Positions 45,492-59,847 of a DNA stretch of 64,000 bases are shown here, in pieces. Positions within the stretch are counted from its first letter, which is position 1, and every line of letters begins with the position of its first letter. The DNA comes from a virus: IMG/VR virus record IMGVR_UViG_3300016476_001169, positions 40,192 to 104,191 of that record; one strand, 5' to 3'. The notes beneath the pieces were generated by a model that made no database searches, was not told where the DNA came from, and saw only the letters and a list, made by a program, of their open reading frames with translations. Position numbers and translations under genes: made by a program.

Positions 45492-45561
45492 AGTAACACT
45501 TTGTACATCTTGGGGCGGCCCCATTTTTATCTTAAAAGAAGAAAGTTTATTCTATAATAGT

Positions 45562-45636: not shown

Positions 45637-45776
45637 TGAAACTGAGTCACCGCTTAATCAATAATGGGCGTCAGTTTATCTTTCAGAATCATACTGATTG
45701 CTGGGTTTTGACAATCAAGCCACACAGACTTTTAATAGCACATAGATTCCAGCCGCTTTGGACTTGGAATCATTAA
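45636..45776 (+). CDS. 46-aa peptide, paralogue of 44696
   Basis: MKLSHRLINNGRQ...CWVLTIKPHRLLIAHR; TAATG coupling. Confidence 0.7.
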   Translation: MKLSHRLINNGRQFIFQNHTDCWVLTIKPHRLLIAHRFQPLWTWNH

Positions 45777-45842
45777 GTCTTTGTAGGCTTTGGGCTTAGG
45801 GGCGAAAATATCTTAAAAACAAAAGGGGGCTTCTATAATAGT

Positions 45843-46094
45843 ATGAACGAATATCCTGGTTACAAGAATCGCGCCACTTGGGTTGCAAGCGTCTGCCTCG
45901 GTGAATCAATCAATCAACTTCGTGCTGATTATCCTGAGATGACAATCTTGGATGTAAAGACAGAATGTCTTGAGTTTCTACTCAATCATTCTAATCACAA
46001 GTTTGTCAATCAGTTTCTCCATGTGGTTGCTGATGAGATTGATTGGGAGTTTCTCTACAATGACAATCTTAAAAGCCAACTTGCAAAGGTTTAA
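45843..46094 (+). CDS. hypothetical protein, Y.GY.N.ATW family
   Basis: N-terminus similar to 50367. Confidence 0.75.
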   Translation: MNEYPGYKNRATWVASVCLGESINQLRADYPEMTILDVKTECLEFLLNHSNHKFVNQFLHVVADEIDWEFLYNDNLKSQLAKV

Positions 46095-46180
46095 GCCTTT
46101 GTAAGTTTTGGGGCAATGGGGGCCAGATCTTTGGCCCCCTTATTTTTATATTAAAAAATCATAATAAGTTCTATAATAGT

Positions 46181-46312
46181 ATGCAAGACACATTTAATGA
46201 CAACTTCGACATCGCCGCGCTCACCGTTGCTTTTGCCAACCAGGACACAGATTATGACGCACAACCTTTTCATCTTGATGTAGTTGATTACAACCATGCT
46301 TGCCGCTTTTAG
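46181..46312 (+). CDS. 43-aa acidic peptide (cassette)
   Basis: MQDTFNDNFDIAAL...; followed by hairpin. Confidence 0.55.
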   Translation: MQDTFNDNFDIAALTVAFANQDTDYDAQPFHLDVVDYNHACRF

Positions 46313-46394
46313 CGCGGCATGGTTGCAGGTTTAATTATGTTTTGATGTTAATAAATTTTTATCCTTAAAAATAAAAATGGGGCTCTATAGTATT

Positions 46395-46580
46395 ATGAAC
46401 TTCGCAGACTTTCTTTTGTCATCTGGCGTCAGTATTATTGACGGTGCATTCTCAGCTAATGGTATGAAGTATTTTTTCATCAACAATGATGTATTTAGAG
46501 TTAGTCAAATCGGTTCTATTATTCGTGAGTTTAAAGTATCCCAATCAGAGATTAATGCAATCATTTTGTCTTTGAGATAA
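46395..46580 (+). CDS. hypothetical protein (cassette, divergent element)
   Basis: CTATAGTATT-ATG start. Confidence 0.6.
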   Translation: MNFADFLLSSGVSIIDGAFSANGMKYFFINNDVFRVSQIGSIIREFKVSQSEINAIILSLR

Positions 46581-46645
46581 GTCTTTGTAGACTTTGGGGG
46601 CCTGGTGATTTTATCTTAAAAACTATTATTGGATTCTATAATAGT

Positions 46646-47002
46646 ATGAATACTATTGGAAACTACAACCTAGAACACACCATTTACCGCTTCTTGCCAG
46701 TGACTCATGTCAAGTCCTTGGAGCGATTCCTTGAGCAGGGTATTCATCCCGGTGATTTCATGGCTCGTGTGCTTGAGAATAATCTTGTTGGTGCTGTTGC
46801 CAACGGAGATGAAAACTCCAAGCAACATCTTTGCGACTTGGTTATGTTTATCCATAACCACTTGCCAGGTCGGTTCCTCAAGCCGGGTTGTGTCGATGAT
46901 TTTATCAATGGCACTGTCCGATACACTGTAACCGAGGGTGGTTACTGTGACTGGATTGAAACTGACCCTATCAAACAAAAGTATATTTCTGCAGAGAATT
47001 AA
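46646..47002 (+). CDS. hypothetical phage protein (cassette)
   Basis: GIHPGDFMARVLENNL motif. Confidence 0.75.
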   Translation: MNTIGNYNLEHTIYRFLPVTHVKSLERFLEQGIHPGDFMARVLENNLVGAVANGDENSKQHLCDLVMFIHNHLPGRFLKPGCVDDFINGTVRYTVTEGGYCDWIETDPIKQKYISAEN

Positions 47003-47067
47003 ACCTTTGTAGATTTTGGGGTACCCCCGCTTTTGTCTTAAAAAGTGCTTTTGGATTCTATAGTAGT

Positions 47068-47349
47068 ATGGAAACTTCTGAAGACTTCAATGGCAACCCC
47101 GTATCTGGTTTGTATGCGAACATGAGCGATGCGCTTCATTTGGAGATATCAGCGATGTGCAAGCAGCATGGCTGGCGCTTATCAGTGACTCACGGTGACG
47201 AACACGCCGAGTATGGCTTCTGGACAGTTTGGAGTGATGAGTTTGGGCTGATATGCAACGAAGTCAGCAGGTCGCATTGTTATTACATCCTCAAGGGTGT
47301 CACCATAGGTTTGATGATGCACAAGGCAAAAGAAAACCAATTTGTGTAA
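47068..47349 (+). CDS. hypothetical protein (cassette)
   Basis: element-ATG to stop-element. Confidence 0.7.
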   Translation: METSEDFNGNPVSGLYANMSDALHLEISAMCKQHGWRLSVTHGDEHAEYGFWTVWSDEFGLICNEVSRSHCYYILKGVTIGLMMHKAKENQFV

Positions 47350-47421
47350 ACCTTTGTAGGTTTTGGGGTGTCGGGCCCCAAAAATTTTATCTTAAAATAT
47401 CCTGCATGGTTCTATAATAGT

Positions 47422-47700
47422 ATGAAAACATTCATTATCAAAAACGTGCTGGTTGAGTCGAAGTTGCCCGGTCTGGGTTCTGTCAAGAGTAAGACTGTCA
47501 ATACGATGGTTCCACCCTGTGATTGGGAGCAGTTGAATACTCACCTTTTTGAGATGTTCAAGGGGTTCCTTGAAAACTTTACTGATGTAAAGTTTGATTC
47601 TCTGGTGATGTCTTTTGAGTATTCTGACTCTGAGACACCTGACTTGATTCATCAAGTCGACCATGGTTTTGATTCTGAAGGTGATATCTACTGTTGCTAG
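47422..47700 (+). CDS. hypothetical protein (cassette)
   Basis: start reassigned to ATG after element. Confidence 0.7.
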   Translation: MKTFIIKNVLVESKLPGLGSVKSKTVNTMVPPCDWEQLNTHLFEMFKGFLENFTDVKFDSLVMSFEYSDSETPDLIHQVDHGFDSEGDIYCC

Positions 47701-47779
47701 GTATCACCTTTTAACCTTTTGTAGGTTTTGGGCCGCCCCCGCTTTTGTCTTAAAAAGTGCTATTGGATTCTATAGTAGT

Positions 47780-48016
47780 ATGAAAGACCTCATTTTCCAA
47801 GACGACATCTACTTCACCCTCACTGCCGAGCAAGCCGAATGGGCTGTCGCTTCGTGGACTAAGGTTCTCCTCCATCGGGGTATGATACCCGGTCGCATTC
47901 CTTCTGAGAGTGAAATCTCCCGATTCAAAACGGCGATTCCGGGAGTTCTCAACGGCTCCCCGCAGGAAGACCTCGGTTACATCCTGCATTCGGCTTCTAA
48001 GGTGCATTGGGATTAA
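47780..48016 (+). CDS. hypothetical protein (cassette)
   Basis: start reassigned to ATG after element. Confidence 0.7.
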   Translation: MKDLIFQDDIYFTLTAEQAEWAVASWTKVLLHRGMIPGRIPSESEISRFKTAIPGVLNGSPQEDLGYILHSASKVHWD

Positions 48017-48083
48017 CCCTTTGTAGACTTTGGCCTGTCGGGCGGGATCCATCTTAAAAAGGGGCATAGGATTCTATAATAGT

Positions 48084-48278
48084 ATGAAAAACTTTCCACT
48101 TATCACCAAGTACATTGATGAAATCGGCATTGACGTAAACCAGTCAGAACGCCTGTTTCTCAGCATTCTTGAAGACCGCCTTTCAGATGTTGAGAATGGC
48201 AGATGCACTGTTGATGATGCAGTGGGAGAAGCCTACGACTTCTACGCTGAGGCAATGAATAGTTGTGACGACTATTAG
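48084..48278 (+). CDS. acidic hypothetical protein (cassette)
   Basis: start reassigned to ATG after element. Confidence 0.7.
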   Translation: MKNFPLITKYIDEIGIDVNQSERLFLSILEDRLSDVENGRCTVDDAVGEAYDFYAEAMNSCDDY

Positions 48279-48344
48279 TCCTTTGTAGGCTTTGGGGGAC
48301 TCCCGGGATTTATCTTAAAAACTATTATTGGATTCTATAGTAGT

Positions 48345-48578
48345 ATGGAAACCTCTTCATTCACCTTCATCAACATCTGCGACCTCTCCCGCCAACTCAT
48401 GCCGGAACAAAAAACCATTGCGGATTTTTACACCGCATACAACCTTGTGCAGGAGTGGGTCAAAAACAATGATGCCGTGATGTACGAGCATGAGAAGTAC
48501 CACTTCTCACGTTACGAGGCGATGGAACTCGCCACTGCGGCGGGTGTCAAAACAATCGTGGTACACGATTGTTCCTAA
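48345..48578 (+). CDS. hypothetical protein (cassette)
   Basis: element-ATG to stop-element. Confidence 0.7.
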   Translation: METSSFTFINICDLSRQLMPEQKTIADFYTAYNLVQEWVKNNDAVMYEHEKYHFSRYEAMELATAAGVKTIVVHDCS

Positions 48579-48713
48579 GACTTTGTAGGTTTTGGGGCGT
48601 CGCCTTTACTAAATAAGCTAAAGAAAACATAATTTAGCAAAGGATTTAGTAAAGGATTTAGTAAAGGGCCCCCTATTTTTATCTTAAAACTTATTAAACT
48701 GTTCTATAATAGT

Positions 48714-48968
48714 ATGAACTTTCACTCAATCAAATCAATCGTCGCCGCATCGGACATCGCCTTTTCGCTTGATACCTCGCTGGATGATTTTCTGAACGAA
48801 TCTGACAAGTGGACTTTTGGAGACGCTCCTCATGTGCTTGTCAAGCCTTTTGTTTTTGAGCGGGCGTTTTATGACTACTTTGGCGACCAGGATGATGTTG
48901 TCGCAAAGTTCAAGCCGCTTTTCAATGAGATTTTGGAAGCCGAAGCCATGATTGATGTTGCACAATAG
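48714..48968 (+). CDS. acidic hypothetical protein, paralogue of 63577-63834
   Basis: ASD...T(F/W)GDA...ID shared. Confidence 0.7.
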   Translation: MNFHSIKSIVAASDIAFSLDTSLDDFLNESDKWTFGDAPHVLVKPFVFERAFYDYFGDQDDVVAKFKPLFNEILEAEAMIDVAQ

Positions 48969-49039
48969 GCTTAAGCCTTTGTGCATTCTGGCCAGTCCCC
49001 GGTTTTATCTTAAAAAGTGTCATTGGGTTCTATAATAGT

Positions 49040-49177
49040 ATGAGTTATACAATCCAACAATGCAATACAGGTGGTTTCAACGTTCTTTGTGACGGTCAAG
49101 TTATCGGATGGTGTCTCGCACCATGGCAATCACGAACTGTGATTAAAAAGCACATTGATGCTAATCCACTCCCTTAG
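49040..49177 (+). CDS. 45-aa peptide, GGxNV..DG family
   Basis: MSYTIQQCNTGGFNVLCDGQVIGW... Confidence 0.65.
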   Translation: MSYTIQQCNTGGFNVLCDGQVIGWCLAPWQSRTVIKKHIDANPLP

Positions 49178-49218
49178 TTAGTTTTCTCTTAAATAACTTT
49201 ATTGGAATCTATAATAGT

Positions 49219-49356
49219 ATGAACATTCAAGACATTATTGCCATCATCTTTTTTATACCTGTTGGTTTTGTGGCTATTACGTCAGCAGTATGTTTGCTTT
49301 GTATGCCTTTTCATTATCTTTCAGATTATATTCATTTAAGAAGTAAGACTTTGTAA
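49219..49356 (+). CDS. 45-aa membrane peptide (cassette)
   Basis: hydrophobic; stop falls inside the next CTTTGTAA box. Confidence 0.55.
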   Translation: MNIQDIIAIIFFIPVGFVAITSAVCLLCMPFHYLSDYIHLRSKTL

Positions 49357-49429
49357 ATTTTGGGGGCATGGGCGGTTTTATCTTAAATCATTGTTGTTAG
49401 GTTCTATAGTAGTATAAGAGGTGAAGCAA

Positions 49430-49660
49430 ATGACAGGACTTGAAGCACTGGATTTATTGAGAAAAGGTAATGTCAAAGTTAAGCGTTCTGAATGGCACAA
49501 GGATGAATACTTGGAGACTTTTGATGGTAAAGATGTATATCCTTCCACAGAGTATGACCGCGAGCGTGGTGACAAATGCCATTATCCAAGTGATGCTCAA
49601 AGCTTAACAATGAACATATTAGATGATTTTCTTAAAGATGACTGGGAGGTAGTAAAATGA
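49430..49660 (+). CDS. DUF2829/Tad2-like protein
   Basis: EALDLLRKG...KRSEW...DFLKDDWEVV; GAGGTG SD after element. Confidence 0.65.
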   Translation: MTGLEALDLLRKGNVKVKRSEWHKDEYLETFDGKDVYPSTEYDRERGDKCHYPSDAQSLTMNILDDFLKDDWEVVK

Positions 49661-49741
49661 GAGGTACAAGGTTAACCCTTTGTACCTTTTGGCGTATCCC
49701 CGGTTTCTTCTTAAAAATCTGCCATTATGTTCTATAGTAGT

Positions 49742-49900
49742 ATGAAATCAATGACAATCACGAGGCGCGACATCGAGAAGGCGCGCAAAAACAACCCTTC
49801 TACCATTCCTGCATCTGAGCGTCCTTGGGCGCGCCCAACTGTATACAAGTCGGGGCGTGAATATCAACGCAACGCAAAGCATCGGAACCGAGAAGAATAA
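49742..49900 (+). CDS. 52-aa basic peptide, paralogue of 58788-58949
   Basis: MKSMTITRRDIEKARK...VYKSGREYQRNAKHRN. Confidence 0.75.
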   Translation: MKSMTITRRDIEKARKNNPSTIPASERPWARPTVYKSGREYQRNAKHRNREE

Positions 49901-49965
49901 TACTTTGTAGGTTTTGAGGGGCCCCATTTTTTATCTTAAAAACTATTATTAGATTCTATAGTAGT

Positions 49966-50148
49966 ATGGAAAACAAAGTTGTCACGGACTGGAACGCAGT
50001 CGCCCCTTCTGCTCATGGTACTCTTGTTGGTCTCAAGTTGATTCTTACGGGACTTGAGAATCATGATTATCCTGTGAATGTTCTCAAAAAAGTGCTGGAA
50101 GGTTATGAAAAGCAGATTGCAGAATACCTTGCAGAAAAGAAAGATTAA
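49966..50148 (+). CDS. hypothetical protein (cassette)
   Basis: ATG after element. Confidence 0.65.
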   Translation: MENKVVTDWNAVAPSAHGTLVGLKLILTGLENHDYPVNVLKKVLEGYEKQIAEYLAEKKD

Positions 50149-50150
50149 TC

Positions 50151-50300
50151 ATGGAAGATTTTAATGTAGAAATCCGACCTTCCGCCCGTGGTGGTTGGAA
50201 TCTTTATATCGATGGTGATTTTTGTGGCTATGACAAGTCCAAGAAAGTTCTAAAAGAACTTGCACAAGAAATGATTAAGAATGAGCATGGACTTTATTAA
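50151..50300 (+). CDS. 49-aa peptide, GGxN...DG family
   Basis: MEDFNVEIRPSARGGWNLYIDGDFCGY...; second gene of cassette. Confidence 0.6.
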   Translation: MEDFNVEIRPSARGGWNLYIDGDFCGYDKSKKVLKELAQEMIKNEHGLY

Positions 50301-50366
50301 GTCTTTGTAAATTCTGGCCCGCAGGGCGGTTTTATCTTAAAACCTATTATTGGATTCTATAATAGT

Positions 50367-50597
50367 ATGAATAATGCAACCTATAACGGCTATGCCAACT
50401 ACGCTACTTGGAACGTCTCAGCATACATTACCAATGACGAAGGTTTGTATAACTTGGTAAAGCGTTATGACACTTGGGATAAGTGTAAAGAAGCGTTGAT
50501 TATGTGTGGTGTAACCCAAACCTGTGATGACATCTCTTTTGATGACCCAGATTTGGACACAAACGAACTTGATGAGATGCTGGCAGAACTTTCATAA
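50367..50597 (+). CDS. hypothetical protein, YNGY.NY.TWNV family
   Basis: recurrent phage motif; related to 45843. Confidence 0.75.
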   Translation: MNNATYNGYANYATWNVSAYITNDEGLYNLVKRYDTWDKCKEALIMCGVTQTCDDISFDDPDLDTNELDEMLAELS

Positions 50598-50680
50598 GTT
50601 GCCAGCATTTTTTAGGCTTTGTAAATTCTGACCCACTGGGCGGTTTTATCTTAAAAAAGATTATTATTCCCTATAATAGT

Positions 50681-51052
50681 ATGAATACTGCAATGAAAAT
50701 CCAAATCCATCCAAACGCTTGTGCTAACTACATCGCCCGTTGCTACCGTCACAATCGTCATTCGCAGAATATGCTTCACAATGCGGCTTTTGCTGATAAA
50801 CTTCGCAAGGTTCAGGGTCAATGGTTGGAAGTTGACACCGAGCATCTTTTCGCAGACCAGTTTAATACTGTGCCTATTGAAGGTGTAACAGAGAATGGAT
50901 TGCGTGTAATGCAGTCAGATGTTGTTTCAATCGTTAATGATGTGCGTAATAATGTCGTAAAGTGTCAATGGTGCTACGGTTACGACAAAGATAATGATGG
51001 AAAGTGCGATAAATGCGGAAAAGATGACTATTTATCGCCTTTAATGCCATAA
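50681..51052 (+). CDS. hypothetical protein with C-terminal zinc finger
   Basis: CQWC...CDKC. Confidence 0.75.
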   Translation: MNTAMKIQIHPNACANYIARCYRHNRHSQNMLHNAAFADKLRKVQGQWLEVDTEHLFADQFNTVPIEGVTENGLRVMQSDVVSIVNDVRNNVVKCQWCYGYDKDNDGKCDKCGKDDYLSPLMP

Positions 51053-51124
51053 ATTAACACTTTGTGGCTTCTGACCCGCTGGGCGATTTTATCTTAAAAA
51101 GATTCTACTGCATTCTATAATAGT

Positions 51125-51364
51125 ATGAAAAGAATGACCATTGCCGAAGCGAAGCGTATCTGTTTGGAGCGAGATGGCTCCCTGCCGAGAATCGGCTACT
51201 CCCGTGACGTTGTGACTCGCGAAGAGCAGGTCGAAGTCACCAACTATTGTGAAGGTCCAAAGTTTTATCGGACTACCACAAAAGTCAACTATACACTCGT
51301 CAACGCAGGTGGTACTTTCAAAGTGCAAAAGTACACTCACCCTTCAGTTCCTCCACGGTATTAA
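51125..51364 (+). CDS. hypothetical protein (cassette)
   Basis: element-ATG to stop-element. Confidence 0.65.
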   Translation: MKRMTIAEAKRICLERDGSLPRIGYSRDVVTREEQVEVTNYCEGPKFYRTTTKVNYTLVNAGGTFKVQKYTHPSVPPRY

Positions 51365-51430
51365 TACTTTGTGGATTCTGGGACATCCCCCGGTTTTATC
51401 TTAAAAAGTATTATTGGGTTCTATAATAGT

Positions 51431-51832
51431 ATGAACGAAATCTTTATTCTCCAGTCCTCCGAAGTCGATTCCCTTGGTGCTTGCTCCTACGGCACCCTCC
51501 GCTCTGTTGACCTGTTGCCACGCTTGGCTAACTATCTCAGCATTGCCCTTGACACAATCGAGGTTCGCTTTGAGAATGCTGGTCAGGCTCTCAAAGACTT
51601 TGAGCAAGGTTTTGTTGCAGAATACCGCCACATTGTGGCAGATGCCGTTGAGTTTCACGAACTCAATGCAGATGAATACGGTAGTGCATACCCTGAATCT
51701 GCCGAGATGGATGCACAAGAGATTATTGTGTCATTGTTTGACGCTTTAGACCAACTTTCGCCTGATGGTCAATACTTTGGCTCACATCCCGGCGATGGTA
51801 GCGACTTTGGCTACTGGGAGAATGAGTTTTAA
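51431..51832 (+). CDS. acidic hypothetical phage protein
   Basis: GTLR..DL...YFGSHPGDGSDFGYW motif. Confidence 0.75.
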   Translation: MNEIFILQSSEVDSLGACSYGTLRSVDLLPRLANYLSIALDTIEVRFENAGQALKDFEQGFVAEYRHIVADAVEFHELNADEYGSAYPESAEMDAQEIIVSLFDALDQLSPDGQYFGSHPGDGSDFGYWENEF

Positions 51833-51980
51833 TGTTAAATAACATAATAATGTGCACTATTATGTTATTATTCATCGCTTTTTACATCTATCTAGGTTTT
51901 ATTATTAAATATAAGACTTTGTAGATGTTGGCCAGGCCCCAATTTTTATCTTAAATATTATTATCGCATTCTATAATAGT

Positions 51981-52163
51981 ATGAATAATCCTAACATTCC
52001 TAAGTGTCCTGACCGTGTACCATTTAAGTCTCAAGGCGATTACGCCAATGTTCGTCCTACTAGGTTCAAGCCTGCTCCAGATGGTGATTGGGATGACGAC
52101 CTCGACCCTGAAGATAGGGCTCGCATGATGGGTCGTGATTTCATGGGTCCAAGATGGCGATAA
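51981..52163 (+). CDS. hypothetical protein (cassette)
   Basis: ATG after element. Confidence 0.6.
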   Translation: MNNPNIPKCPDRVPFKSQGDYANVRPTRFKPAPDGDWDDDLDPEDRARMMGRDFMGPRWR

Positions 52164-52211
52164 ACATCTTAAAATAACTTATTTATTTCTATACTAGTAA
52201 GGAAGAAAACT

Positions 52212-52490
52212 ATGTACATTACCAACATCTTTGCAGACATCGACGACTTATCAACTGGTTATTCCGCTTTTGTATCTTATGGATTAGAAGAAGATGATGA
52301 TTTGGACTTTATTGGTATCTATCCTCTTAATAGACTGATTGGAAATAATAGTTTTGACAGCGAAGAATCGCTTAAAAGTGCGATTAAGAATGCTTTAGTT
52401 AGCACTTATCCAAATAAAAAGATTACTTTTGATTATTATTTCCAATATGAAAGTAATGAAGTAATTAAGCGATACAATGAATCTGCATAA
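52212..52490 (+). CDS. hypothetical protein, last gene of + arm
   Basis: AAGGA SD after element variant. Confidence 0.65.
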   Translation: MYITNIFADIDDLSTGYSAFVSYGLEEDDDLDFIGIYPLNRLIGNNSFDSEESLKSAIKNALVSTYPNKKITFDYYFQYESNEVIKRYNESA

Positions 52491-52505
52491 GTTATGCAGA
52501 TTTTT
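52481..52505 (+). terminator. terminator at convergence of the two arms
   Basis: ATCTGCATAA-G-TTATGCAGAT-TTTT. Confidence 0.7.
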
Positions 52506-52539
52506 GGCGATGGGCCAAAAACTACAAAGGTTTATTTTG

Positions 52540-52623
52540 TGGTAGTAGCAAGAGGAGGCCTCGAACCTGCCGTCTCCCGTTCCGGAACGCTTGTTTTATC
52601 CAAATAAACTATCTTGCTACTAC
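52540..52623 (-). tRNA. degenerate tRNA-like element (Arg-CCG-like)
   Basis: acceptor AGCAAGA/TCTTGCT (extendable to 12 bp, then CCA), D arm GTTT-ATTTGGATA-AAAC, T arm GG(C)AGG-TTCGAGG-CCTCC; anticodon arm poorly paired around TTCCGGA. Confidence 0.65.
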
Positions 52624-52626
52624 TAC

Positions 52627-52786
52627 TTATATGCCTTGACATAACTGTTTGCGTCAGTCCCTGCCAAGGACAGTAAGAACTTGTGGCTTTTTGACCACCC
52701 CAAGGTTGCTACCCTTATTTGAATCTCGCAATAGATTCTAGCCGTTCTGGATTCTTACTGGCTGAGGTTGTTCGAATCAACCTCAT
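52627..52786 (-). ncRNA. candidate multi-stem structured RNA expressed from a cassette promoter
   Basis: six hairpins plus 9-bp long-range helix CAGTAAGAA/TTCTTACTG; only a 23-codon ORF. Confidence 0.6.
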
Positions 52787-52856
52787 ACTATTATAGAGCA
52801 TTATTGTGGTTTTTAAGATAAATTTTTGGGGGACTGGAGCCAAAAGTTACAAAGGA

Positions 52857-53183
52857 TTAAATCCTTTGTTTTACATTGGCATCTTTATCTTCCCAATTAA
52901 AGAAAAGAAAAGCAAAGAATGCAAGTGCATATAAAACCAATGCAGAGCCGAATGAAAAGTTCAAAAGATTCATTGCTATTGGTGCTTTATCATTACCAGT
53001 AATAATCCACTCAATCCAACCGCCAATAATTCCAATTACTGGAGTGGCAATCAAAGCAATCGTGCCAAGTTTAACAAGATACTTGCCTAAAAATTTCATT
53101 ACACCAATAGCAACAGCAACAATAAGAGTAAACAAGCCGATGTAAACAAGTGACTGAAGCAGTCGGGCAGTAATTTCGTTCAT
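52857..53183 (-). CDS. membrane protein, 3 TM (cassette)
   Basis: start reassigned to ATG after element. Confidence 0.7.
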   Translation of the reverse strand: MNEITARLLQSLVYIGLFTLIVAVAIGVMKFLGKYLVKLGTIALIATPVIGIIGGWIEWIITGNDKAPIAMNLLNFSFGSALVLYALAFFAFLFFNWEDKDANVKQRI

Positions 53184-53295
53184 ACTATTATAGAATCCAA
53201 TCAATCAATTTAAGATAAAAATGGGGGCTACTCCCCAAAGGCTACAAAGGACTAATAATCGTCACCACCATAGTAACCATTCACGATTTTGCATT

Positions 53296-53619
53296 TTAAA
53301 ATTCCCCATACTCAGATAGGATTTTGTTTTTGATTCTAGATGGTAGTTCAACATTTTTGGCTAAACCCATCAAGATTTGTTTTGGTTGCAATAGAGATTT
53401 ACGTTTTTCTTGGTTGACTTTCCATTCATAAACAACCAAACACCATTCCCCATCCCATCCATGTTCGTGCTTAATAAAATATGTTTCTCCATCAACAGAA
53501 GGAAAAACACCATCAACAAAAATCTCCGTATCCATAGGTTTAAAGAAATCTGTGTTATAAAAAATTTCTCTACCTGAATTGGTTTTCAGATTATAAATCC
53601 AATACTTTGGTTTTTGCAT
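53296..53619 (-). CDS. hypothetical protein (AT-rich cassette flanked by direct repeats)
   Basis: start reassigned to ATG after element. Confidence 0.7.
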   Translation of the reverse strand: MQKPKYWIYNLKTNSGREIFYNTDFFKPMDTEIFVDGVFPSVDGETYFIKHEHGWDGEWCLVVYEWKVNQEKRKSLLQPKQILMGLAKNVELPSRIKNKILSEYGEF

Positions 53620-53688
53620 ACTATTATAGAATCCAATCAATCAGTTTAAGATAAATTTTTGGCCAGAGGCCCCAAAATCTACAAAGGA

Positions 53689-53997
53689 CTAATAATCGTC
53701 ACCGCCATAGTAACCGTAGTCCTCGTCACAGCCATATCCAGCTGAAGCAAGAGCATCTGCATCATCGCTCATGTCGTGGCAATTATAAGGAAAACAGTAC
53801 TCTTCAGGGTCAGGCTCTGCAAGCACATCATAAGTGGCTATGCACTCGCCGTCGTGGTCAACGGTGTATATTTCACCCGGACCAAATCTACCCTCGCTGT
53901 CGTTTACAGCGATGTCTATCATCACACGAGAAAGAATCGTGCAAATGTCCGAAGCGGAAGCACTGGAAGGGACGCTGAAGTTGATGTTGATTTCCAT
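53689..53997 (-). CDS. acidic hypothetical protein
   Basis: C-terminal DDADALASAGYG.DEDYG motif. Confidence 0.75.
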   Translation of the reverse strand: MEININFSVPSSASASDICTILSRVMIDIAVNDSEGRFGPGEIYTVDHDGECIATYDVLAEPDPEEYCFPYNCHDMSDDADALASAGYGCDEDYGYYGGDDY

Positions 53998-54063
53998 ACT
54001 AGTATAGAACATTATGGTATTTTTTAAGATAAAACCGGGGACAGGGCCAAAACCTACAAAGTG

Positions 54064-54405
54064 CTAATCTTCGAGGTCTGGATTGACTTGAATCCTAGTT
54101 TTACTAAGGACTTCTGCCATTTTGTAGCATTCTACAAGATATTCATGCACAGTTCGTGCAATGTAAAGCGGGTGAATCGACGCACCTATGTTTTTGGCTG
54201 GCATTGAAAAAACTATTTCTGTTTTGCCATCTGCAAATGACACAATGTCAGCAAGTAGGTCAATGTCTTTGTAGTCACGATAAATAATATCAATGACACC
54301 AAAGTCATGGGTAGCACGATAGATGATTTCTTTTGATTTCTCAAGAAGAATGTTTTGGATAAAATCATCAACGGATACTGCGAAGATTGCTCTAGATGTT
54401 GTCAT
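54064..54405 (-). CDS. hypothetical protein (cassette)
   Basis: element-ATG to stop-element. Confidence 0.7.
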   Translation of the reverse strand: MTTSRAIFAVSVDDFIQNILLEKSKEIIYRATHDFGVIDIIYRDYKDIDLLADIVSFADGKTEIVFSMPAKNIGASIHPLYIARTVHEYLVECYKMAEVLSKTRIQVNPDLED

Positions 54406-54488
54406 ACTACTATAGAATCCAATAATACTTTTTAAGATAAAAGCGGGGGTGCCCCAAAATTTACAAAGGATTAAATTCCTTTGTAAAT

Positions 54489-54776
54489 TTAATAATCATC
54501 ATCCCAACGCTCGCCAGCATCTGATTCATCAAACCAATCAGGGGCAACGCTGGACAGATTTACAGGGTGATAACTGCTCCCGCAGTCATTGAACGACGCT
54601 TGGGGGTAAGCGGCTTTTGCTTCCTCAAGAGTATCAAACTCATCGAGCCAAATCCTGCAAGTCTGACCTGCAAGAACTGACGATTCGGAATAAACACCGT
54701 ACTCATACACGCCATACGTTTCATTGCAATAGGTTGCGCCAGCAGATGGATACTCTATTCTAAACTCTGTTTTCAT
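54489..54776 (-). CDS. acidic hypothetical phage protein
   Basis: SSVLAGQ...FDTLEEAKAAYP...PDWFD..DAGERW. Confidence 0.75.
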   Translation of the reverse strand: MKTEFRIEYPSAGATYCNETYGVYEYGVYSESSVLAGQTCRIWLDEFDTLEEAKAAYPQASFNDCGSSYHPVNLSSVAPDWFDESDAGERWDDDY

Positions 54777-54843
54777 ACTACTATAGAATCTTGTATCTAC
54801 TTTTTAAGATAAACCCGGGCAGTGCACCAAAGTTTACAAAGCC

Positions 54844-55281
54844 TTAAGTCGGTACACTATTGTAAACCTTAAGTGTAAAAATACCTAAACTATTAAACAT
54901 ATCAATACAGTCATCTCTATCTTCAATAGCATACACAGGAATGTAGTCATGGCATTTCATTTCTTCTATTAAATCGCTTTTAACCATAGGTGATTTACGG
55001 TAATCATTCTTATTTCGCATAAATAGAGCATCATAATCAATGTTATTATCTTCTAACCATTTAGTTGTGAGTTCTCTATTAGATTCTGGGCGGGCTGTTA
55101 GAATAATAATCATGTACTTTTCTTTAAGCATGTTAATAAGTTCTCTAACAGGTTCAACAACTAAATCTTCATTGCAGTTATTAAAAAATGATTGCCAATC
55201 TTTTTTCTTTGATTCTATGAAATGTAATCGGTGATTACAATCAGCTAAGGTTCCATCTAAATCTACGATTACACTATCCAT
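54844..55281 (-). CDS. HAD-family phosphatase, paralogue of 35742-36194
   Basis: VDLDGTLADCNHRLH, LTARPE, RKSP, IEDR. Confidence 0.85.
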   Translation of the reverse strand: MDSVIVDLDGTLADCNHRLHFIESKKKDWQSFFNNCNEDLVVEPVRELINMLKEKYMIIILTARPESNRELTTKWLEDNNIDYDALFMRNKNDYRKSPMVKSDLIEEMKCHDYIPVYAIEDRDDCIDMFNSLGIFTLKVYNSVPT

Positions 55282-55355
55282 ACTAATATAGAGCCCCTTT
55301 TTTATTTTTATGATATTTATTGACACGAGCCAGAACCTACAAAGAGTAAATCTTT

Positions 55356-55688
55356 CTAGGGAACCTTGCTGGTGTGGCATAGGAGAACATTACCAACAAT
55401 CGGGCGACCTGCCAACTCGGTTGCCTCAATGTTGAGGGTTGGATTATTCCAAAGACCCTCTTCGTCACATACAAGAATGTATTCTGTATCTGGAACATCA
55501 ACCAACTCAATGGAATCACAGCCGATTGCATTGTAGAGTCCTGAGAGACCAAACACCATGTCGCCATCATGCTCGACAGCAGGTGGAACAACATTGACTA
55601 CATCGTAGCCACCTGTAGGGGTGATAAGTACACCGACACCGCTATCGACGATTTTCTTGACTGAAGGTTGAAGAGTGATTGTATTCAT
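55356..55688 (-). CDS. DUF3846-like protein
   Basis: AIGCDSIELV...CDEEGL...N..AT...IVGNVLL. Confidence 0.7.
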   Translation of the reverse strand: MNTITLQPSVKKIVDSGVGVLITPTGGYDVVNVVPPAVEHDGDMVFGLSGLYNAIGCDSIELVDVPDTEYILVCDEEGLWNNPTLNIEATELAGRPIVGNVLLCHTSKVP

Positions 55689-55744
55689 ACTATTATAGAA
55701 GCCCCCTTTTATTTTTAAGATGTTTCGACCAGATCACCCACCTT

Positions 55745-55921
55745 CTACAAACCCTTATTTGTTGGGATTGAGAAGATGACAAAAGGTGTTACTATAAAAA
55801 TGCCAAGTCTGACATAAAGATTATGAAAAATAAAAAATGAGATAAAAATAAATCCAAAAGTCATCGTTGACTTTGCGAGCATTACAATGCTATTGTGGGA
55901 TTCTGCAATATAGTTTTCCAT
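55745..55921 (-). CDS. 58-aa membrane peptide (cassette)
   Basis: hand translation MENYIAESHNSIVML...; hydrophobic. Confidence 0.5.
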   Translation of the reverse strand: MENYIAESHNSIVMLAKSTMTFGFIFISFFIFHNLYVRLGIFIVTPFVIFSIPTNKGL

Positions 55922-56016
55922 ACTATTATAGTTTCGGTTTTTAGTTTTTATGGTAGAAATTAAAAGTGGGGCCAGGATTTACAAAGTATTAATTTGTAAA
56001 TCCTGCATGAAAAACA

Positions 56017-56334
56017 TTAACCTTGCTGCATTCGCTCTTTTGACGCTTTTTCTGCTTCACTGATAACTGCATACCAGCGGGCGGAAATAGCATCATTCTT
56101 ATCCCTTGAATACCACATTCGATTATCTGGACACCACTTATCTTCAGTTTTTAACATCCAATAAGCAGTTCGTTTCCAAAGAATCCAAACAAAAGCGGCA
56201 CAGTTGCAGATAGAAGCAGACCAGCCTGCGACACCATCCAACTTTAGAACTGTATTAATCAAATACATGAACATAATATAGGGGATAGCCGCTTCAAAAA
56301 CGCTAACCAAGTTGATTTTGAGTGCTTTAACCAT
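56017..56334 (-). CDS. membrane-associated hypothetical protein
   Basis: second gene of cassette, adjacent to upstream stop. Confidence 0.6.
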   Translation of the reverse strand: MVKALKINLVSVFEAAIPYIMFMYLINTVLKLDGVAGWSASICNCAAFVWILWKRTAYWMLKTEDKWCPDNRMWYSRDKNDAISARWYAVISEAEKASKERMQQG

Positions 56335-56335
56335 G

Positions 56336-56689
56336 TTACTTACCTTTCAACTCGGAAAATCGAGTTGGAACAAAAGACGCATCATAAGAATAGGGGAAGA
56401 TAGTTTCGATTTGGTTAATCATGCTTGACAAATCAAAGTACGCTGGCGTGGTTTCGCCTTTGTTCACAATGTAACCAAAGAGTTCAAACTCTTCCTCAAA
56501 CTTAGTACCTTCGATAATGTACAAAGTGTCGCCAGTAAAAATATCATCAATCTTACATTGAACGATAGGGTCAGATTCGAGAATCTGGGAATCCAGTTCT
56601 GGCAACTTATTCAGCACACTAACTGGAATCAAAAACTTATCGGACTGCTTAACGATGTAATCGGCGTAGGTCTCAAGTGCAATGTTCAT
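56336..56689 (-). CDS. DUF2958-like protein
   Basis: LP.L..Q...DPIV..K...YIIE...LFGYI...YFDL pattern. Confidence 0.55.
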   Translation of the reverse strand: MNIALETYADYIVKQSDKFLIPVSVLNKLPELDSQILESDPIVQCKIDDIFTGDTLYIIEGTKFEEEFELFGYIVNKGETTPAYFDLSSMINQIETIFPYSYDASFVPTRFSELKGK

Positions 56690-56774
56690 ACTATTATAGA
56701 ACGCCACACTCGTTTTTAAGACAAATTTTAACACTTTGTAGGGGTTGGGGCGTCGCCCCCAATAATAACCCCGT

Positions 56775-57590
56775 TTAGGGGTTATTATTGTACCATTCAT
56801 CAACACTTATTGAGATTTCAGCGGGTGCAATACACGGGATGTGGCTAGTTGCTTCCATCCAATAGGAATAATCGGCTTTTTGCAACGCTTCTTTTGCTCT
56901 TTCGTCTATTAACTTGATGAATGCTGTTGTTCTGGGGTTATAATCTAAACCTTTAAGTATTCTACCTGCTCCATCACCATGAGTTCGGAATGCTAAGTCT
57001 GGATTTTCATCTTTTTTAACAAACTTAAACTTATCGGAGCGGTAACTTTGTCTTTTAGGTCTAGTTTCCCCCTTGACTCTTTGCCAGATTTGAAACTCTG
57101 TTCGGAGTCTACCCATTTCGTAAACCACTCCTTGGGGAGTTTGGAAACTTACTTCTGGGCATTGTTCGGTATAAACACGAACAAACTCTGGGTGTAATCT
57201 ATCTTCAATAGATGGTTTTCTAAATGATGGTGGGATTATAAATGCGATAACATCGCACGATTCAGCACATTTATTAAAAGTTTTGATTGCCAATGCACAA
57301 GCACGACCAAAAGGTGGATTACCAACCGCTATTAGGTGCTGTTTATCTAGATTTAGCGAGAAAAAATCTGCTTGTAATACATCTGGATGCCTTGGTTCAA
57401 TGTCATAAGCCAGAATCTCTTTTACTTCTGCCTCTTTTAATGCCCTCAAAAAACTACCGCCACCTGCTGTAGGTTCGAGAAATGTATGGTCTTTGCCAAC
57501 TATACCGATTAGAATGTCTGTAAAGTGCTTTGCAACACTATCTATTGTATAGTATTGTTCTGCACCTTGCTTTCGTGGATTTCCTGCCAT
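56775..57590 (-). CDS. N6-adenine/N4-cytosine DNA methyltransferase
   Basis: EQYYT, LEPTAGGGSF (motif I), DIEP, DFF, GNPPFG (motif IV), IAFIIP. Confidence 0.85.
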   Translation of the reverse strand: MAGNPRKQGAEQYYTIDSVAKHFTDILIGIVGKDHTFLEPTAGGGSFLRALKEAEVKEILAYDIEPRHPDVLQADFFSLNLDKQHLIAVGNPPFGRACALAIKTFNKCAESCDVIAFIIPPSFRKPSIEDRLHPEFVRVYTEQCPEVSFQTPQGVVYEMGRLRTEFQIWQRVKGETRPKRQSYRSDKFKFVKKDENPDLAFRTHGDGAGRILKGLDYNPRTTAFIKLIDERAKEALQKADYSYWMEATSHIPCIAPAEISISVDEWYNNNP

Positions 57591-57593
57591 TGA

Positions 57594-58118
57594 TTATTCC
57601 TTATCTTTGAATGGTAAATCTATTATCGTGCGATTTTCGTTGAAAATAGACTCAAACTTTACATTTTCTGCATCTATTAGTTCCAAATCTTTGGCTGGAA
57701 GAAGAACAAATCGGTATTTCCATTGTGGCATTTCGGAAATGTCCACTACCATAAAGTAATCATAAGATGAAAAGTACTTATCGGCAATGCTTTTGATTTC
57801 TTCTGCGGTTCTGCGACTCTTAGAATCGAACAGGGAGGATTTGCCAACTCGGATTTTAGTTTTGCTAGTTTTGGTATTGGCGGTTTTCATTTGAATAGAC
57901 TTCAACGAGCCGTCCACAGATACCCAAAGGTCAGCAGATTCTCCCTGCGTAGTAGCATCAGAAGTTGTATTGTCGAACTGGAATGCAATGATGTCTTCCA
58001 AAGCAACACCGCATTGGCGACCACTGCAAAACCACTCAATGGTTTGCTCTTGAGTCATGCCTGGCACACGGAATGAAGGCATTTGCTGTGTGTAGATGGT
58101 GTTGATTTCGAGATTCAT
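57594..58118 (-). CDS. putative PD-(D/E)XK endonuclease
   Basis: G..LE...ADL...IQMKT motif order; immediately upstream of MTase. Confidence 0.5.
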   Translation of the reverse strand: MNLEINTIYTQQMPSFRVPGMTQEQTIEWFCSGRQCGVALEDIIAFQFDNTTSDATTQGESADLWVSVDGSLKSIQMKTANTKTSKTKIRVGKSSLFDSKSRRTAEEIKSIADKYFSSYDYFMVVDISEMPQWKYRFVLLPAKDLELIDAENVKFESIFNENRTIIDLPFKDKE

Positions 58119-58194
58119 ACTAGTATAGAAGCCCCCTTTTATTTTTAAGATGTTTATACATTTTTGGGGCCCTGTGGCCAGAAGTTACAAAGAA

Positions 58195-58563
58195 CTATAT
58201 TTCAAGTTGCCAGAACTCATCGGCTCTAATCGAATATTTGCACCACTCTGTTTTATTGATTGAGAAATAAGACAGGTCAACATAACCTGACTCAGTGTGC
58301 AAGTAATCCTCGATTGTGCCATCGAGTTCAGCCTCTTCGACCATTTCTTCATCAAGAAGAATCAAGTGACCGTACTTAGAATCAGCGAACGCCTCAATGG
58401 CATCCTGCTCATGGTAAGCCTCCACAACAAATGGAGTAGACACATTGCCCAAACCAGCGTGGACGAGGAAGGTATTCCCAAAGTTTCTACCTGGGTTGAT
58501 GATTTCTACGTTCTCAAAAATCCAATCGTTTGCTTTGCCAGCGGCTGTGAGTGTTGTATTCAT
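58195..58563 (-). CDS. acidic hypothetical protein (cassette)
   Basis: VVEAYHEQDAIE motif; start reassigned. Confidence 0.7.
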   Translation of the reverse strand: MNTTLTAAGKANDWIFENVEIINPGRNFGNTFLVHAGLGNVSTPFVVEAYHEQDAIEAFADSKYGHLILLDEEMVEEAELDGTIEDYLHTESGYVDLSYFSINKTEWCKYSIRADEFWQLEI

Positions 58564-58648
58564 ACTATTATAGAATCTAATGATAGTTTTTAAGATAAAA
58601 CTGGGGGAGCAGCCAGAAGCCACAAAGTGTTATCCTTGTGGCTTTGAA

Positions 58649-58777
58649 CTATGCCATAACATTACCTGATTCAAAATCAAATTGTAACTGTGCAGAAATA
58701 TCATAATCATCGTATGAATTATCTACAACGTTATTATCACTAGTCGGTTCTGCGTCGTTGTTTTGCGTATCTTCCAT
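58649..58777 (-). CDS. 42-aa highly acidic peptide
   Basis: AGGGGG SD; MEDTQNNDAEPTSDNNVVDNSYDDYD... Confidence 0.5.
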   Translation of the reverse strand: MEDTQNNDAEPTSDNNVVDNSYDDYDISAQLQFDFESGNVMA

Positions 58778-58787
58778 AAATTTCCCC

Positions 58788-58949
58788 CTAATCTGAGATT
58801 TGATTTTTATGTTTTGAATGACGGCAATATTCTTTGCCAGACTTATAAACAGTAGGGCGAGACCACGGACGTTCTGACGCAGGAATCACTGTTGGGTTAG
58901 CCTTACGAGCCTTTTCTATGTCACGTCTTGTAATAGTTACCGTTTTCAT
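58788..58949 (-). CDS. 53-aa basic peptide, paralogue of 49742
   Basis: MKTVTITRRDIEKARK...VYKSGKEYCRHSKHKN. Confidence 0.75.
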   Translation of the reverse strand: MKTVTITRRDIEKARKANPTVIPASERPWSRPTVYKSGKEYCRHSKHKNQISD

Positions 58950-59007
58950 ACTATTATAGAGCCCCCTTTTTATTTTTAAGATAGAATCCGCCCCCTAGGG
59001 CCAAAGC

Positions 59008-59544
59008 CTACAAAGGGTTAGTATTCAAGTTCTGTGAATCAACATAAATTTTATGTACTTCATTTATTTGAGATTGTAATGTATCTAATTTATTTTTGTC
59101 TTCAAAATAATTTTTAATGTCTTGTTTTGTTAAATATCCATATTCACGAGGCATAAGCCTATTGGTGAAATAAGCCCAAAATAAATAAAAAATTAAAATT
59201 GTAGTAATTACAACAAATAATTTGACAAAAATATTATTCACCAAAAGCAAAGGCATGAATGGCGTAGAAACAAGAAAAGACAAAGCAAAAAATCCACACC
59301 ATCCGTCTGAGTTTAACGTGAGTTTCTTTTTTGTGCCATCTGAGTTATAATAATAATTTATTTTACTAAACTCATATATTTTATTATAATTTTGAATATT
59401 ATCAAGCAGGTCTGAATAAGAAATACCAAATTTATCAAATGCAATTATATTATATGCATCTAATTTCATGGCTGGTTTAATACCATCTAAGAGTCTAGTG
59501 TCTTCTACAGAAGACCATGATTTGCCAGTGCCACATGAAAACAT
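59008..59544 (-). CDS. AT-rich membrane protein (cassette)
   Basis: two TM segments; ATG after element. Confidence 0.65.
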   Translation of the reverse strand: MFSCGTGKSWSSVEDTRLLDGIKPAMKLDAYNIIAFDKFGISYSDLLDNIQNYNKIYEFSKINYYYNSDGTKKKLTLNSDGWCGFFALSFLVSTPFMPLLLVNNIFVKLFVVITTILIFYLFWAYFTNRLMPREYGYLTKQDIKNYFEDKNKLDTLQSQINEVHKIYVDSQNLNTNPL

Positions 59545-59622
59545 ACTACTATAGAATATAGTTACGATTTTTTAAGAAGAAATCAGGGAGGAGCCAAAAC
59601 CTACAAAGGGTTACTTTGTAGA

Positions 59623-59847
59623 TTACCATCCTTGCTCGGCTTGACGGGCGCAGATGTCACACTGATACCCGCGATGCTTATCAGCAGGGGTCAGCATATT
59701 CGGTCGCCCACAGTTTCCGCAAGGGAGGTTCCGAGGGTTGCGCTTGGATGCCGCACGAAGGGCAGAGCCACTGCGAGCAAAGCGAGTTCCATCCCCCGCG
59801 TCGAATGGGTCGTCGTCGAAGTCGTAATCGTCATCGTAATAAGCCAT
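59623..59847 (-). CDS. zinc-ribbon protein with acidic N-terminus
   Basis: LRAAS..NPRNLPCGNC...YQCDICA; GAGGAG SD. Confidence 0.75.
   Translation of the reverse strand: MAYYDDDYDFDDDPFDAGDGTRFARSGSALRAASKRNPRNLPCGNCGRPNMLTPADKHRGYQCDICARQAEQGW

Follow-up and report, generated by a model that had tools for sequence, protein, structure and literature searches.

Results

A structured RNA in a phage cassette array

We analysed a 64,000-nt stretch of viral DNA (positions 40,192–104,191 of IMG/VR record IMGVR_UViG_3300016476_001169; hereafter, the window), with emphasis on a structured RNA predicted on its minus strand at 52786–52627 and the tRNA-like module that follows it. The window forms the final 64 kb of a phage contig of 104 kb, whose completeness CheckV estimates at 29%. 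One virion protein of this phage shares about 43% identity with proteins of T4-like cyanophages. Two convergent arrays of short units, on both strands, occupy 44.1 to 63.9 kb of the window (44161–63870). Each unit begins with TTTATCTTAAAAA-N13-(T)TCTATAAT-AGT-ATG, in which a promoter module is fused to the start codon, and ends with a CTTTGTAG box and a G+C hairpin. Among the 47 copies of the promoter module counted in the window, the RNA unit is the only one that lacks a plausible protein, which agrees with the first-pass annotation of this DNA, where one cassette was proposed to carry a structured RNA instead of a protein. The other short open reading frame (ORF) cassette, at 45562–45843 (+), encodes a 24-aa hydrophobic peptide and a 46-aa ORF that overlap at a shared ATGA, and it was not unusually folded (z −0.8).

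The RNA unit is the last of the minus-strand array, and its terminator is followed by a convergent gene at 52212–52490 (+). The TATAAT of its promoter module lies at 52795–52790 and the fused ATG at 52786–52784. Judging from these motifs, transcription probably starts at or near 52786, and the cassette end (about 52533–52501) is likely to act as the terminator. The features of the locus are listed below.

52787–52822 (−), putative cassette promoter module (TTTATCTTAAAAA, 13-nt spacer, CTCTATAAT, AGT), covered by repeat families D1–D13; the same module heads 46 other cassettes
52763–52785 (−), P1, variable 5' hairpin of 8 bp with a 7-nt loop (UGAGGUUG/CAACCUCA), seen in the sequence and the minimum free energy (MFE) fold; it holds the promoter-fused AUG
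52671–52760 (−), four-way-junction core P2–P5, from MFE and consensus folds, compensatory changes and the core model R1
52751–52760 with 52671–52680 (−), P2, 10-bp closing helix that encloses hairpins P3, P4 and P5
52721–52738 (−), P3, hairpin with loop AUUGCG, inside P2
52701–52717 (−), P4, hairpin with invariant loop GUAGCAA, inside P2
52683–52698 (−), P5, hairpin inside P2
52635–52668 (−), P6, long two-part hairpin with invariant loop ACGCAAA (5' strand 52668–52655, 3' strand 52647–52635), with 7 compensatory pairs
52727–52731 (−), UUGCG of the P3 loop, proposed 5-bp loop-loop partner of the P6 loop
52649–52653 (−), CGCAA of the P6 loop, proposed partner of the P3 loop
52542–52623 (−), tRNA-like 3' module, from the Rfam tRNA model and the fold (z −3.5)
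52480–52533 (−), cassette end, from the sequence and repeat families D9, D15 and D16
52501–52521 (−), cassette-end hairpin UUUUUGGC-CCAUC-GCCAAAAA, following the CCTTTGTAG box
Within the cassette end, palindrome UCUGCAUAA-C-UUAUGCAGA, common to the convergent gene 52212–52490 (+)

The folding energy of the minus strand at 52786–52627 (160 nt) was −52.8 kcal/mol, compared with −36.0 ± 3.9 kcal/mol for 200 dinucleotide shuffles (z −4.3), and no shuffle equalled it. The comparison with shuffled controls, which had been put forward as a test of the RNA prediction, was therefore clearly in favour of structure. When the core and the tRNA-like part were folded together, the energy reached −82.5 kcal/mol (z −4.5). 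The architecture is a four-way junction and an outer hairpin, P6, tied together by a proposed loop-loop contact.

This fold largely reproduced the one drawn in the first-pass annotation. P1, which had been placed at 52763–52785 starting at the cassette ATG position, was recovered from both the sequence and the fold, and the element indeed runs directly into a tRNA-like module (52623–52542). A closing helix around three hairpins also held, and the hairpins at 52721–52738 and 52683–52698 kept their proposed edges; the helix is, however, 10 bp (52751–52760/52671–52680) rather than 9 bp (52752–52760/52671–52679), and the hairpin given as 52702–52716 becomes 52701–52717. The two further hairpins at 52657–52671 and 52637–52656 had to be abandoned, as the homologues keep a single P6 hairpin (52635–52668) in which 7 pairs have changed on both sides.

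Two side observations concern the P4 loop. A second candidate pairing joins GCU of the strand between P2 and P3 (J2/3, 52742–52740) with AGC of the P4 loop (52710–52708); these nucleotides never vary and the pairing is a guess. In addition, the P4-loop heptamer GUAGCAA (52707–52713) has an exact copy at 52614–52620, in the 5' strand of the acceptor stem of the tRNA-like module, both on the minus strand, and the acceptor 3' strand UUGCUAC could alternatively pair with the P4 loop. The repeat may be due to chance (about 0.5% for a 7-mer in 83 nt, calculated post hoc), reflect the alternative pairing, or be the trace of an insertion.

Homologues and covariation

Homologues were collected from viral contigs, metagenome contigs and a genome_contigs scan of 185,579 species, together with word and pattern searches. 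Exact 20–23-mers of the core were found in 10 viral contigs. A pattern that fixed only the loops and junctions matched 16 viral contigs, 104 metagenome contigs and one contig of a metagenome-assembled genome (MAG), and two divergent viral copies, L204 and L205, came from a search with a word centred on P4. The carriers thus total 18 viral, 104 metagenome and 1 MAG contig (about 120), and the part common to them is the core of ~135 nt only. The core model R1 matched all 81 sources searched (81/81) with 114–162 bits; in the window, it aligned over its full length at 52630–52762 (−) with 141.3 bits (E 5e-28). The invariant elements of the family, ACGGCU, AUUGCG, AAAU-P4(GUAGCAA)-GG and ACGCAAA, are all present in the window copy. 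Contigs of the family reach 300–358 kb and 84–89% completeness. The sole match among the 185,579 species was a 4.3-kb phage-like contig binned in a Crocinitomicaceae MAG, and there is therefore no sign of a host-encoded original. A blastn search of the locus against 50,697 phage records gave no match.

The covariation check recommended in the first-pass annotation was carried out on these homologues. RNAalifold, applied to a plain MAFFT alignment of 15 sequences, returned helices identical to those of the single-sequence fold. In the MAFFT alignment A3, 98.4% of the cells were paired and 14 pairs had changed on both sides, a result that none of 500 shuffles equalled; when the partners were slid by 1–3 columns as a control, pairing fell to 34–46%. 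Aligning 79 distinct sequences to R1 gave 21 pairs with changes on both sides, including 6 in P2, 5 in P3, 2 in P5 and 7 in P6. No variation occurs in P4, in its loop GUAGCAA or in the junction strands, and covariation neither supports nor contradicts them. P1 is a hairpin in all members but L204, and its sequence is unrelated between lineages.

The loop sequences UUGCG and CGCAA are perfectly complementary and invariant in 77 of the 79 sequences. The two remaining copies are L204, in which UUGUG faces CACAA (a C-G to U-A exchange), and L205, in which UUGUG faces CGCAA (a U.G wobble). One compensatory and one wobble change would thus back the P3–P6 loop-loop contact, which is thin evidence in the right direction. 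As a whole, the alignments indicate strong purifying selection on the core, accompanied by compensatory changes, and we are nearly certain that the window cassette is a real, conserved non-coding RNA gene.

A peptide was also considered. The only ORF of the element is 23 codons long, as had been stated, and begins at the ATG at 52786. The same ATG opens only 11 codons in the related phage L150; L002-type copies have a 9-codon ORF in a different frame, and L009-type copies have no AUG. In the fold, the AUG is paired inside P1. Had the homologues kept the 23-aa ORF instead of the pairing, the RNA prediction would have failed; they keep the pairing, and the ORF varies. The 23-codon ORF is thus not conserved, and on comparison of these copies its AUG is best read as a by-product of the promoter module, with no start codon in use.

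A replaceable 3' domain

In the window, the core is followed by a module with many tRNA features. The Rfam tRNA model (RF00005) aligned end to end (model positions 1–71) at 52618–52546 with 28.5 bits (cut-off 29; E 5e-4). The acceptor stem comprises 7 bp (52612–52618 with 52547–52553), and leader and trailer sequences lengthen it to 12 bp (52623–52612/52553–52542); alternatively, a 10-bp stem is followed by A-CCA. The module has UA at positions 8–9, a D-arm with GG in its loop, a T-arm GCAGG-UUCGAGG-CCUCC with one C.C mismatch, and a discriminator A followed by CUACCA. In place of the 17-nt anticodon arm there are 16 nt, AGCGUUCCGGAACGGG, forming the mini-hairpin CGUU-CCGG-AACG with a 4-nt loop. 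The acceptor stem, the D-loop GG and the T-arm with a UUCRA loop are hence present, whereas a 7-nt anticodon loop on a 5-bp stem is absent; having no anticodon loop, the module cannot decode. Identity as a tRNA was rejected: the score lies below the cut-off, ARAGORN does not accept it, a mini-hairpin stands for the anticodon arm, and the match covers 52546–52618 only and not the core. ARAGORN detected no tRNA or transfer-messenger RNA (tmRNA) in the window, and no tRNA gene in the whole 104-kb contig. No relative of the module was found by blastn in the 50,697 phage records, and a word from its D-arm had 0 matches in viral contigs.

The usual 3' domain of the family is different. It is a clover-leaf built on an acceptor-like stem of 10 bp. 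Of its arms, the first is long and the second carries the invariant 15-nt loop AGACCAUCGAAAGAA; a hairpin, CUGG-UUGAAnU-CCAG, directly abuts the 3' strand of the stem. In the clover-leaf of the other members, 8 compensatory pairs were observed (model R2); R2 found nothing in the window at E ≤ 1. More than 90 of the about 104 metagenome copies carry the clover-leaf at the 3' side, and the inspected copies then end in a terminator hairpin. The order in the family is P1, core, an optional insert of ~115 nt (L013, L116, L150, L190) and 3' domain, and all members retain an A/U-rich linker that joins P6 to the 3' module. In most of the other phages, a sigma-70-type promoter (TTGCAx/TTGACA-17 nt-TAATAT) precedes P1 by a few nt, and the RNA ends in a hairpin and a U-run. 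By its motifs, the window copy appears to share this arrangement, with its own promoter before P1 and a terminator after the 3' domain. The insert itself appeared structured; it lies between P6 and the clover-leaf (L013:7866–7980 (−) and L150:~1460–1575 (+), also L116, L144 and L190), and it had no Rfam match.

A related cassette is on L150, a 1.8-kb metagenome contig whose cassettes are 66–80% identical to those of the window. It has the same promoter-fused AUGAGG start at the same array position, and a full insert and clover-leaf. The ordinary RNA was therefore the original form in the cassette lineage, and the 3' domain was exchanged later, in the window phage. Since the last nucleotides in the window, ACCACAAAAUAAACCUUUG, still match ACCACACAAUAAGGCUUUG of L150, the replacement was internal; only the last ~6 nt of the clover-leaf 3' strand (ACCACA) remain. 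Two other copies depart from the usual arrangement. In a G+C-richer phage, L204:3653–3840 (−) is a core alone, without P1 and 3' domain, that lies behind TTGACA-17-TAACAT and ~20 nt upstream of a Shine-Dalgarno (SD) sequence and an 88-aa ORF; no other copy observed is as leader-like in its layout. In L205, an ORF follows directly after the core and clover-leaf. Neither this ORF nor that of L204 belongs to a known family.

Occurrence in RNA libraries

The core was found in RNA-library contigs (metatranscriptome assemblies) from 4 studies, covering marine, freshwater, riverine and wetland samples. These contigs covered 52627–52765/85 and nothing else of the stretch, and a size-fractionated library gave the highest word depth, about 1400. 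At their loose ends, the contigs run on into the clover-leaf and into L002-type P1 hairpins. Missing cover over the flanks specific to the window proves nothing here; the data are assembled contigs. The result supports an abundant RNA of this family in nature, and concerns the family rather than the expression, strand or ends of the window copy. Some contigs bridge the boundary between the core and the 3' domain (X15 record 1; X19 record 13, depth 387), and the depth of core-only sequence was 342–409. This is a weak hint that the modules often stay joined and that many molecules are uncut.

Exchange between phages and integrity of the assembly

The window core is 99.3% identical to that of L002 over 141 nt and about 80% identical to that of L150. 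At the DNA level, the 13.6-kb locus of L002 has nothing else in common with the window contig, and the near-identical cores in otherwise unrelated loci therefore show a recent exchange of the core between phages. By tblastx, the window contig shares scattered small accessory genes with loci L009, L011 and L012, suggesting that these phages draw on one accessory-gene pool.

A separate contig, L185, joins the two types: in L185:1–3060, the upstream 791 nt are L002-type, with a sigma-70 promoter and an L002-type P1, and the join falls at the shared 141-nt core. Its other part is 99.96% identical to window 52767–50536. L185 is either a natural recombinant or an assembly chimera. The window locus is no such chimera, because it has cassette-type sequence on either side and a further contig supports each junction: L185 for the downstream side, and L154, which is 99.9% identical to window 53925–52650, for the upstream side. 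Furthermore, more than half of the words sampled from the stretch were present in each of 14 DNA runs, which come from at least 12 studies.

Comparison with known RNAs

A scan of the whole window with Rfam 15 at gathering thresholds returned no family. Permissive Rfam 15 scans (E ≤ 1–10) of the window, L002, L150 and L204 gave only the sub-threshold tRNA match and chance rows. The proposal of an undescribed multiway-junction non-coding RNA (ncRNA) was thus borne out by the Rfam check for the window copy and three variants. At the sensitivity of the Rfam models, these scans exclude GOLLD, ROOL, raiA, known riboswitches and ribozymes, RNase P RNA, signal recognition particle (SRP) RNA, 6S RNA, tmRNA and YrlA. 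A literature search for a described cyanophage or phage RNA of such kind found none. The two-module RNA family is accordingly absent from Rfam 15, and we found no paper that describes it.

Several specific identities were tried and rejected. For tmRNA, ARAGORN gave no hit, the tRNA-like module is self-closed at the 3' end, and there is no conserved ORF. CCAGAACGGCU resembles the CR-V region of RNase P RNA; an identity as that RNA was dropped, as there was no Rfam match and no P4 partner. A riboswitch or other cis-acting leader at the window locus is contradicted by the terminator and convergent gene downstream; a downstream gene is found only in L204 and L205. Homology to T4 rnaD was suggested by short words that look alike (GUAAG...CUUAC, AUUGCG), and no model matched: searches of the T4 rnaD/rnaC locus (L019, T4 69500–73500) with R1 and R2 gave nothing.

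The nearest known arrangement is nevertheless that of T4 RNAD (species 2, 119 nt) and RNAC (species 1, 139 nt). As in the window, both are phage-encoded, and a structured RNA is followed within a few nt by a stable RNA; at the T4 locus, the structured RNA ends 6 nt before the stable RNA that bears the T-arm. The second RNA, RNAC, likewise has an acceptor-like stem and a canonical T-arm without a decoding anticodon arm. There are also differences. The T4 pair is co-transcribed with eight tRNA genes, whereas the window RNA has its own promoter and terminator and no tRNA gene in the contig, and T4 RNAD is not unusually folded (z −0.8), unlike the window core. The roles of T4 RNAD and RNAC are not known (PMC3014915).

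GOLLD and ROOL offer a looser parallel. They are phage-borne and lie near tRNA islands, and GOLLD, known from lake metagenomes, can carry tRNAs in its linker; kissing loops in ROOL and GOLLD that were first read as tertiary contacts proved to be quaternary (PMC12286853). The RNA described here resembles them in being phage-borne and tRNA-associated with conserved complementary loops, and differs in size (250–410 nt versus 500–800+ nt), in having the tRNA-like part as an integral 3' domain rather than as a neighbouring gene, and in the lack of an Rfam match.

Bacterial Y RNA (YrlA), which acts with Ro60/Rsr, is an ncRNA that holds a tRNA-like module beside a second functional module; its tRNA-like part is distal to a stem made by the two RNA ends. 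In the window, by contrast, the tRNA-like part is a self-closed 3' domain, and there was no Rfam match to YrlA at E ≤ 10. MALAT1-mascRNA and the tRNA-like structures (TLS) of plant viruses also place a tRNA-shaped 3' module on a functional RNA, as a plausible handle for RNase P or the CCA-adding enzyme. These are eukaryotic or RNA-virus systems, unlike the window RNA, and show no homology to it.

Search for partners

We looked for protein partners in five phage records of the family (G000–G004, 29–89% complete). A TROVE (Ro60) gene gave no match in these records, and a host-encoded Ro60 is possible; a gene for a CCA-adding enzyme was not found in them either. The window virion protein had no match in five clover-leaf-type phage records. 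A search with the T4 gp23 family gave no match and is uninformative, because the controls were equally silent.

In the clover-leaf-type phages examined (L020–L031, L002, L008, L011–L013 and L015), a phrog_1987 gene is found 0–1 positions upstream of the RNA. Its protein has ~140–156 aa with the motif YCHxDGYP...RDRGE. The structural model, though confident (predicted local distance difference test score, pLDDT, 92.9), had no significant structural match (Foldseek best E 0.06 and template modelling (TM) score 0.30; VIA-align best Z 3.3), and the VIA-align rows were mostly class-II aminoacyl-tRNA synthetase anticodon-binding and Brix-type domains at Z 2–3, which is below noise. phrog_1987 is widespread without the RNA: 68 of its loci have neither R1 nor R2, and it occurs in T4-like cyanophages, KVP40 and Campylobacter phages. 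It is absent from the window contig. It was therefore not counted as a partner of the RNA.

Discussion

As a whole, the results are best explained by a stable, non-coding two-module RNA gene of about 250–290 nt that belongs to a conserved family in large uncultured freshwater phages; we put this explanation, taken in full with the mode of action inferred below, at an even chance. Elsewhere in the family, the RNA forms independent transcription units with a constant core and a replaceable 3' domain, so that the core is the constant part of the RNA. The features common to both 3' modules are a four-way clover-leaf outline, a long acceptor-like stem and a T-type hairpin with a 7-nt loop on the 3' strand. 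RNase P and the CCA-adding enzyme both recognise a tRNA by its top half. As only the tRNA-like outline is common to the two 3' modules, the 3' module is most likely a tRNA mimic.

From this, we propose a tRNA-mimic handle attached to a trans-acting effector, a mechanism that we hold tentatively, at somewhat less than an even chance. The RNA would be transcribed from the phage's own cassette promoter and closed by the cassette terminator. The 3' module would then engage the tRNA machinery of the host (RNase P, 3' trimming, CCA addition or another tRNA-binding factor), and this engagement might set or protect the ends of the RNA or dock it. The invariant core would serve as the effector and bind, in trans, a conserved partner of host or phage origin. 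The main precedent for this proposal is T4 RNAD-RNAC, the nearest system by analogy, and release by tRNA-processing enzymes, as suggested in the first-pass annotation, would be reasonable from the same precedent.

Several points weigh against this proposal. The AGACCAUCGAAAGAA loop of the clover-leaf has no counterpart in the tRNA-like module of the window, and the two 3' modules may differ in what they do; the RNA of the window could have lost part of its function or taken on another. In L204 and L205, the RNA lies directly upstream of an ORF, and a role in cis is possible in some phages. The flanks in the RNA libraries are clover-leaf-type and not those of the window copy, and such contigs can contain DNA. 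Without a TROVE or CCA-enzyme gene in the five records, a protein partner, if there is one, would be host-encoded or of an unrecognised family. Lastly, the 79-sequence alignment was fitted to R1; the covariation claim rests on the MAFFT result, and the larger set is used for detail.

Among the alternatives, a precursor of two RNAs overlaps with the handle idea and is somewhat unlikely in our estimate. RNase P would cut 5' of the tRNA-like module and yield a core of ~165 nt and a tRNA-like RNA of ~85 nt, much as the T4 RNAD-RNAC precursor p2Sp1 is an RNase P substrate. The canonical acceptor stem, the D-loop GG and the UUCGA T-loop of the module would suit such a cut, as would the A/U-rich linker between P6 and the 3' module in all members and the 6-nt spacing of the structured and T-arm-bearing RNAs in T4. 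On the other hand, leader-trailer pairing brings the window acceptor stem to 12 bp, position 3 of the T-loop in the usual clover-leaf is G and not C, and the RNA-library contigs that bridge the boundary (depth 387 versus 342–409) hint weakly at uncut molecules. A different possibility is that the core is a self-assembling or ligand-trapping RNA rather than a monomeric protein binder, which we regard as quite unlikely. In one version, intermolecular P3–P6 contacts would build a small RNA-only oligomer that presents tRNA-shaped modules; in another, the junction would work by itself as an aptamer, produced in large amounts to soak up a host metabolite or signal, and the tRNA-shaped tail would stabilise it. 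If either were true, the tail swap in the window and the tail-less L204 would show that the core is an autonomous unit. Assembly by RNA only, into dimers or rings that display or enclose the tRNA-like modules, is slightly less probable still. It draws on loops that are complementary, invariant and covarying in L204, and on the quaternary kissing loops of ROOL and GOLLD (PMC12286853); yet this RNA is 3–4 times smaller than GOLLD and ROOL and has no Rfam match to GOLLD, ROOL or raiA, and an intramolecular contact is geometrically plausible, as P6 is about as long as P2 and the junction.

The remaining explanations appear less probable. The invariant junction and loop nucleotides are aptamer-like, and the L204 core, with a promoter of its own and, ~20 nt further on, an SD and an 88-aa ORF, together with the ORF directly after the RNA in L205, would be expected of a ligand- or protein-sensing leader that controls a downstream gene. 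We nevertheless consider a cis-acting leader or riboswitch highly improbable: in the window, a terminator and a convergent gene come after the RNA and there is no ORF downstream, the great majority of the metagenome copies (>90 of about 104) have a clover-leaf and the inspected ones end in a terminator hairpin, the ORFs of L204 and L205 are of no family, and no alternative terminator/anti-terminator pairing was seen. A compact pseudoknotted fold with invariant junction nucleotides in a phage-borne, exchanged family might also suggest a self-cleaving or other catalytic RNA. This we think barely probable, since no Rfam 15 ribozyme matched at E ≤ 10, no conserved candidate cleavage site was identified, and RNA contigs are unbroken through P2–P6 (X17 record 12, 52634–52761). 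Finally, the locus might be decayed or chimeric, that is, a 23-aa mini-gene without a leader, the remnant of a pseudo-tRNA, or a chimera assembled at the shared core. Its AUG stands exactly at the protein-start position of the other 46 cassettes, and L185 joins L002-type upstream to window-type downstream sequence at the 141-nt core. Nonetheless, the probability of this explanation is close to negligible: the homologues do not keep the ORF, whose AUG is paired within P1, both flanks are cassette-type (the promoter and the CCTTTGTAG terminator) with junctions confirmed by L154 and L185, L150 has an RNA cassette at the same place, and the core is under purifying selection.

Phage stable RNAs with tRNA-like parts have gone fifty years without a function (T4 RNAC and RNAD), and GOLLD and ROOL have structures and no function yet. 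The two-module family described here is small enough to be probed or solved, with a well-supported secondary structure and a testable loop-loop contact, and it occurs widely in metagenomes from fresh and estuarine water, while RNA libraries contain it in abundance. The tail swap in the window and the core-only L204 separate an essential core from a replaceable tRNA-shaped tail, and make the tRNA-handling enzymes of the host the candidates to study. They also indicate that the promoter/terminator cassettes of a phage can shuttle a structured RNA as a module, in the same way as any small accessory gene.

Two further observations concern the cassettes themselves. In the 47 copies of the promoter module, the start codon lies 3 nt after TATAAT, implying leaderless mRNAs. 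Several small cargo genes are related at the protein level to accessory regions of clover-leaf-type phages; by tblastx, these relatives were located at about 80.7, 85.4, 100.8, 101.2 and 103.7 kb of the contig, which correspond to about 40.5, 45.2, 60.6, 61.0 and 63.5 kb of the window.

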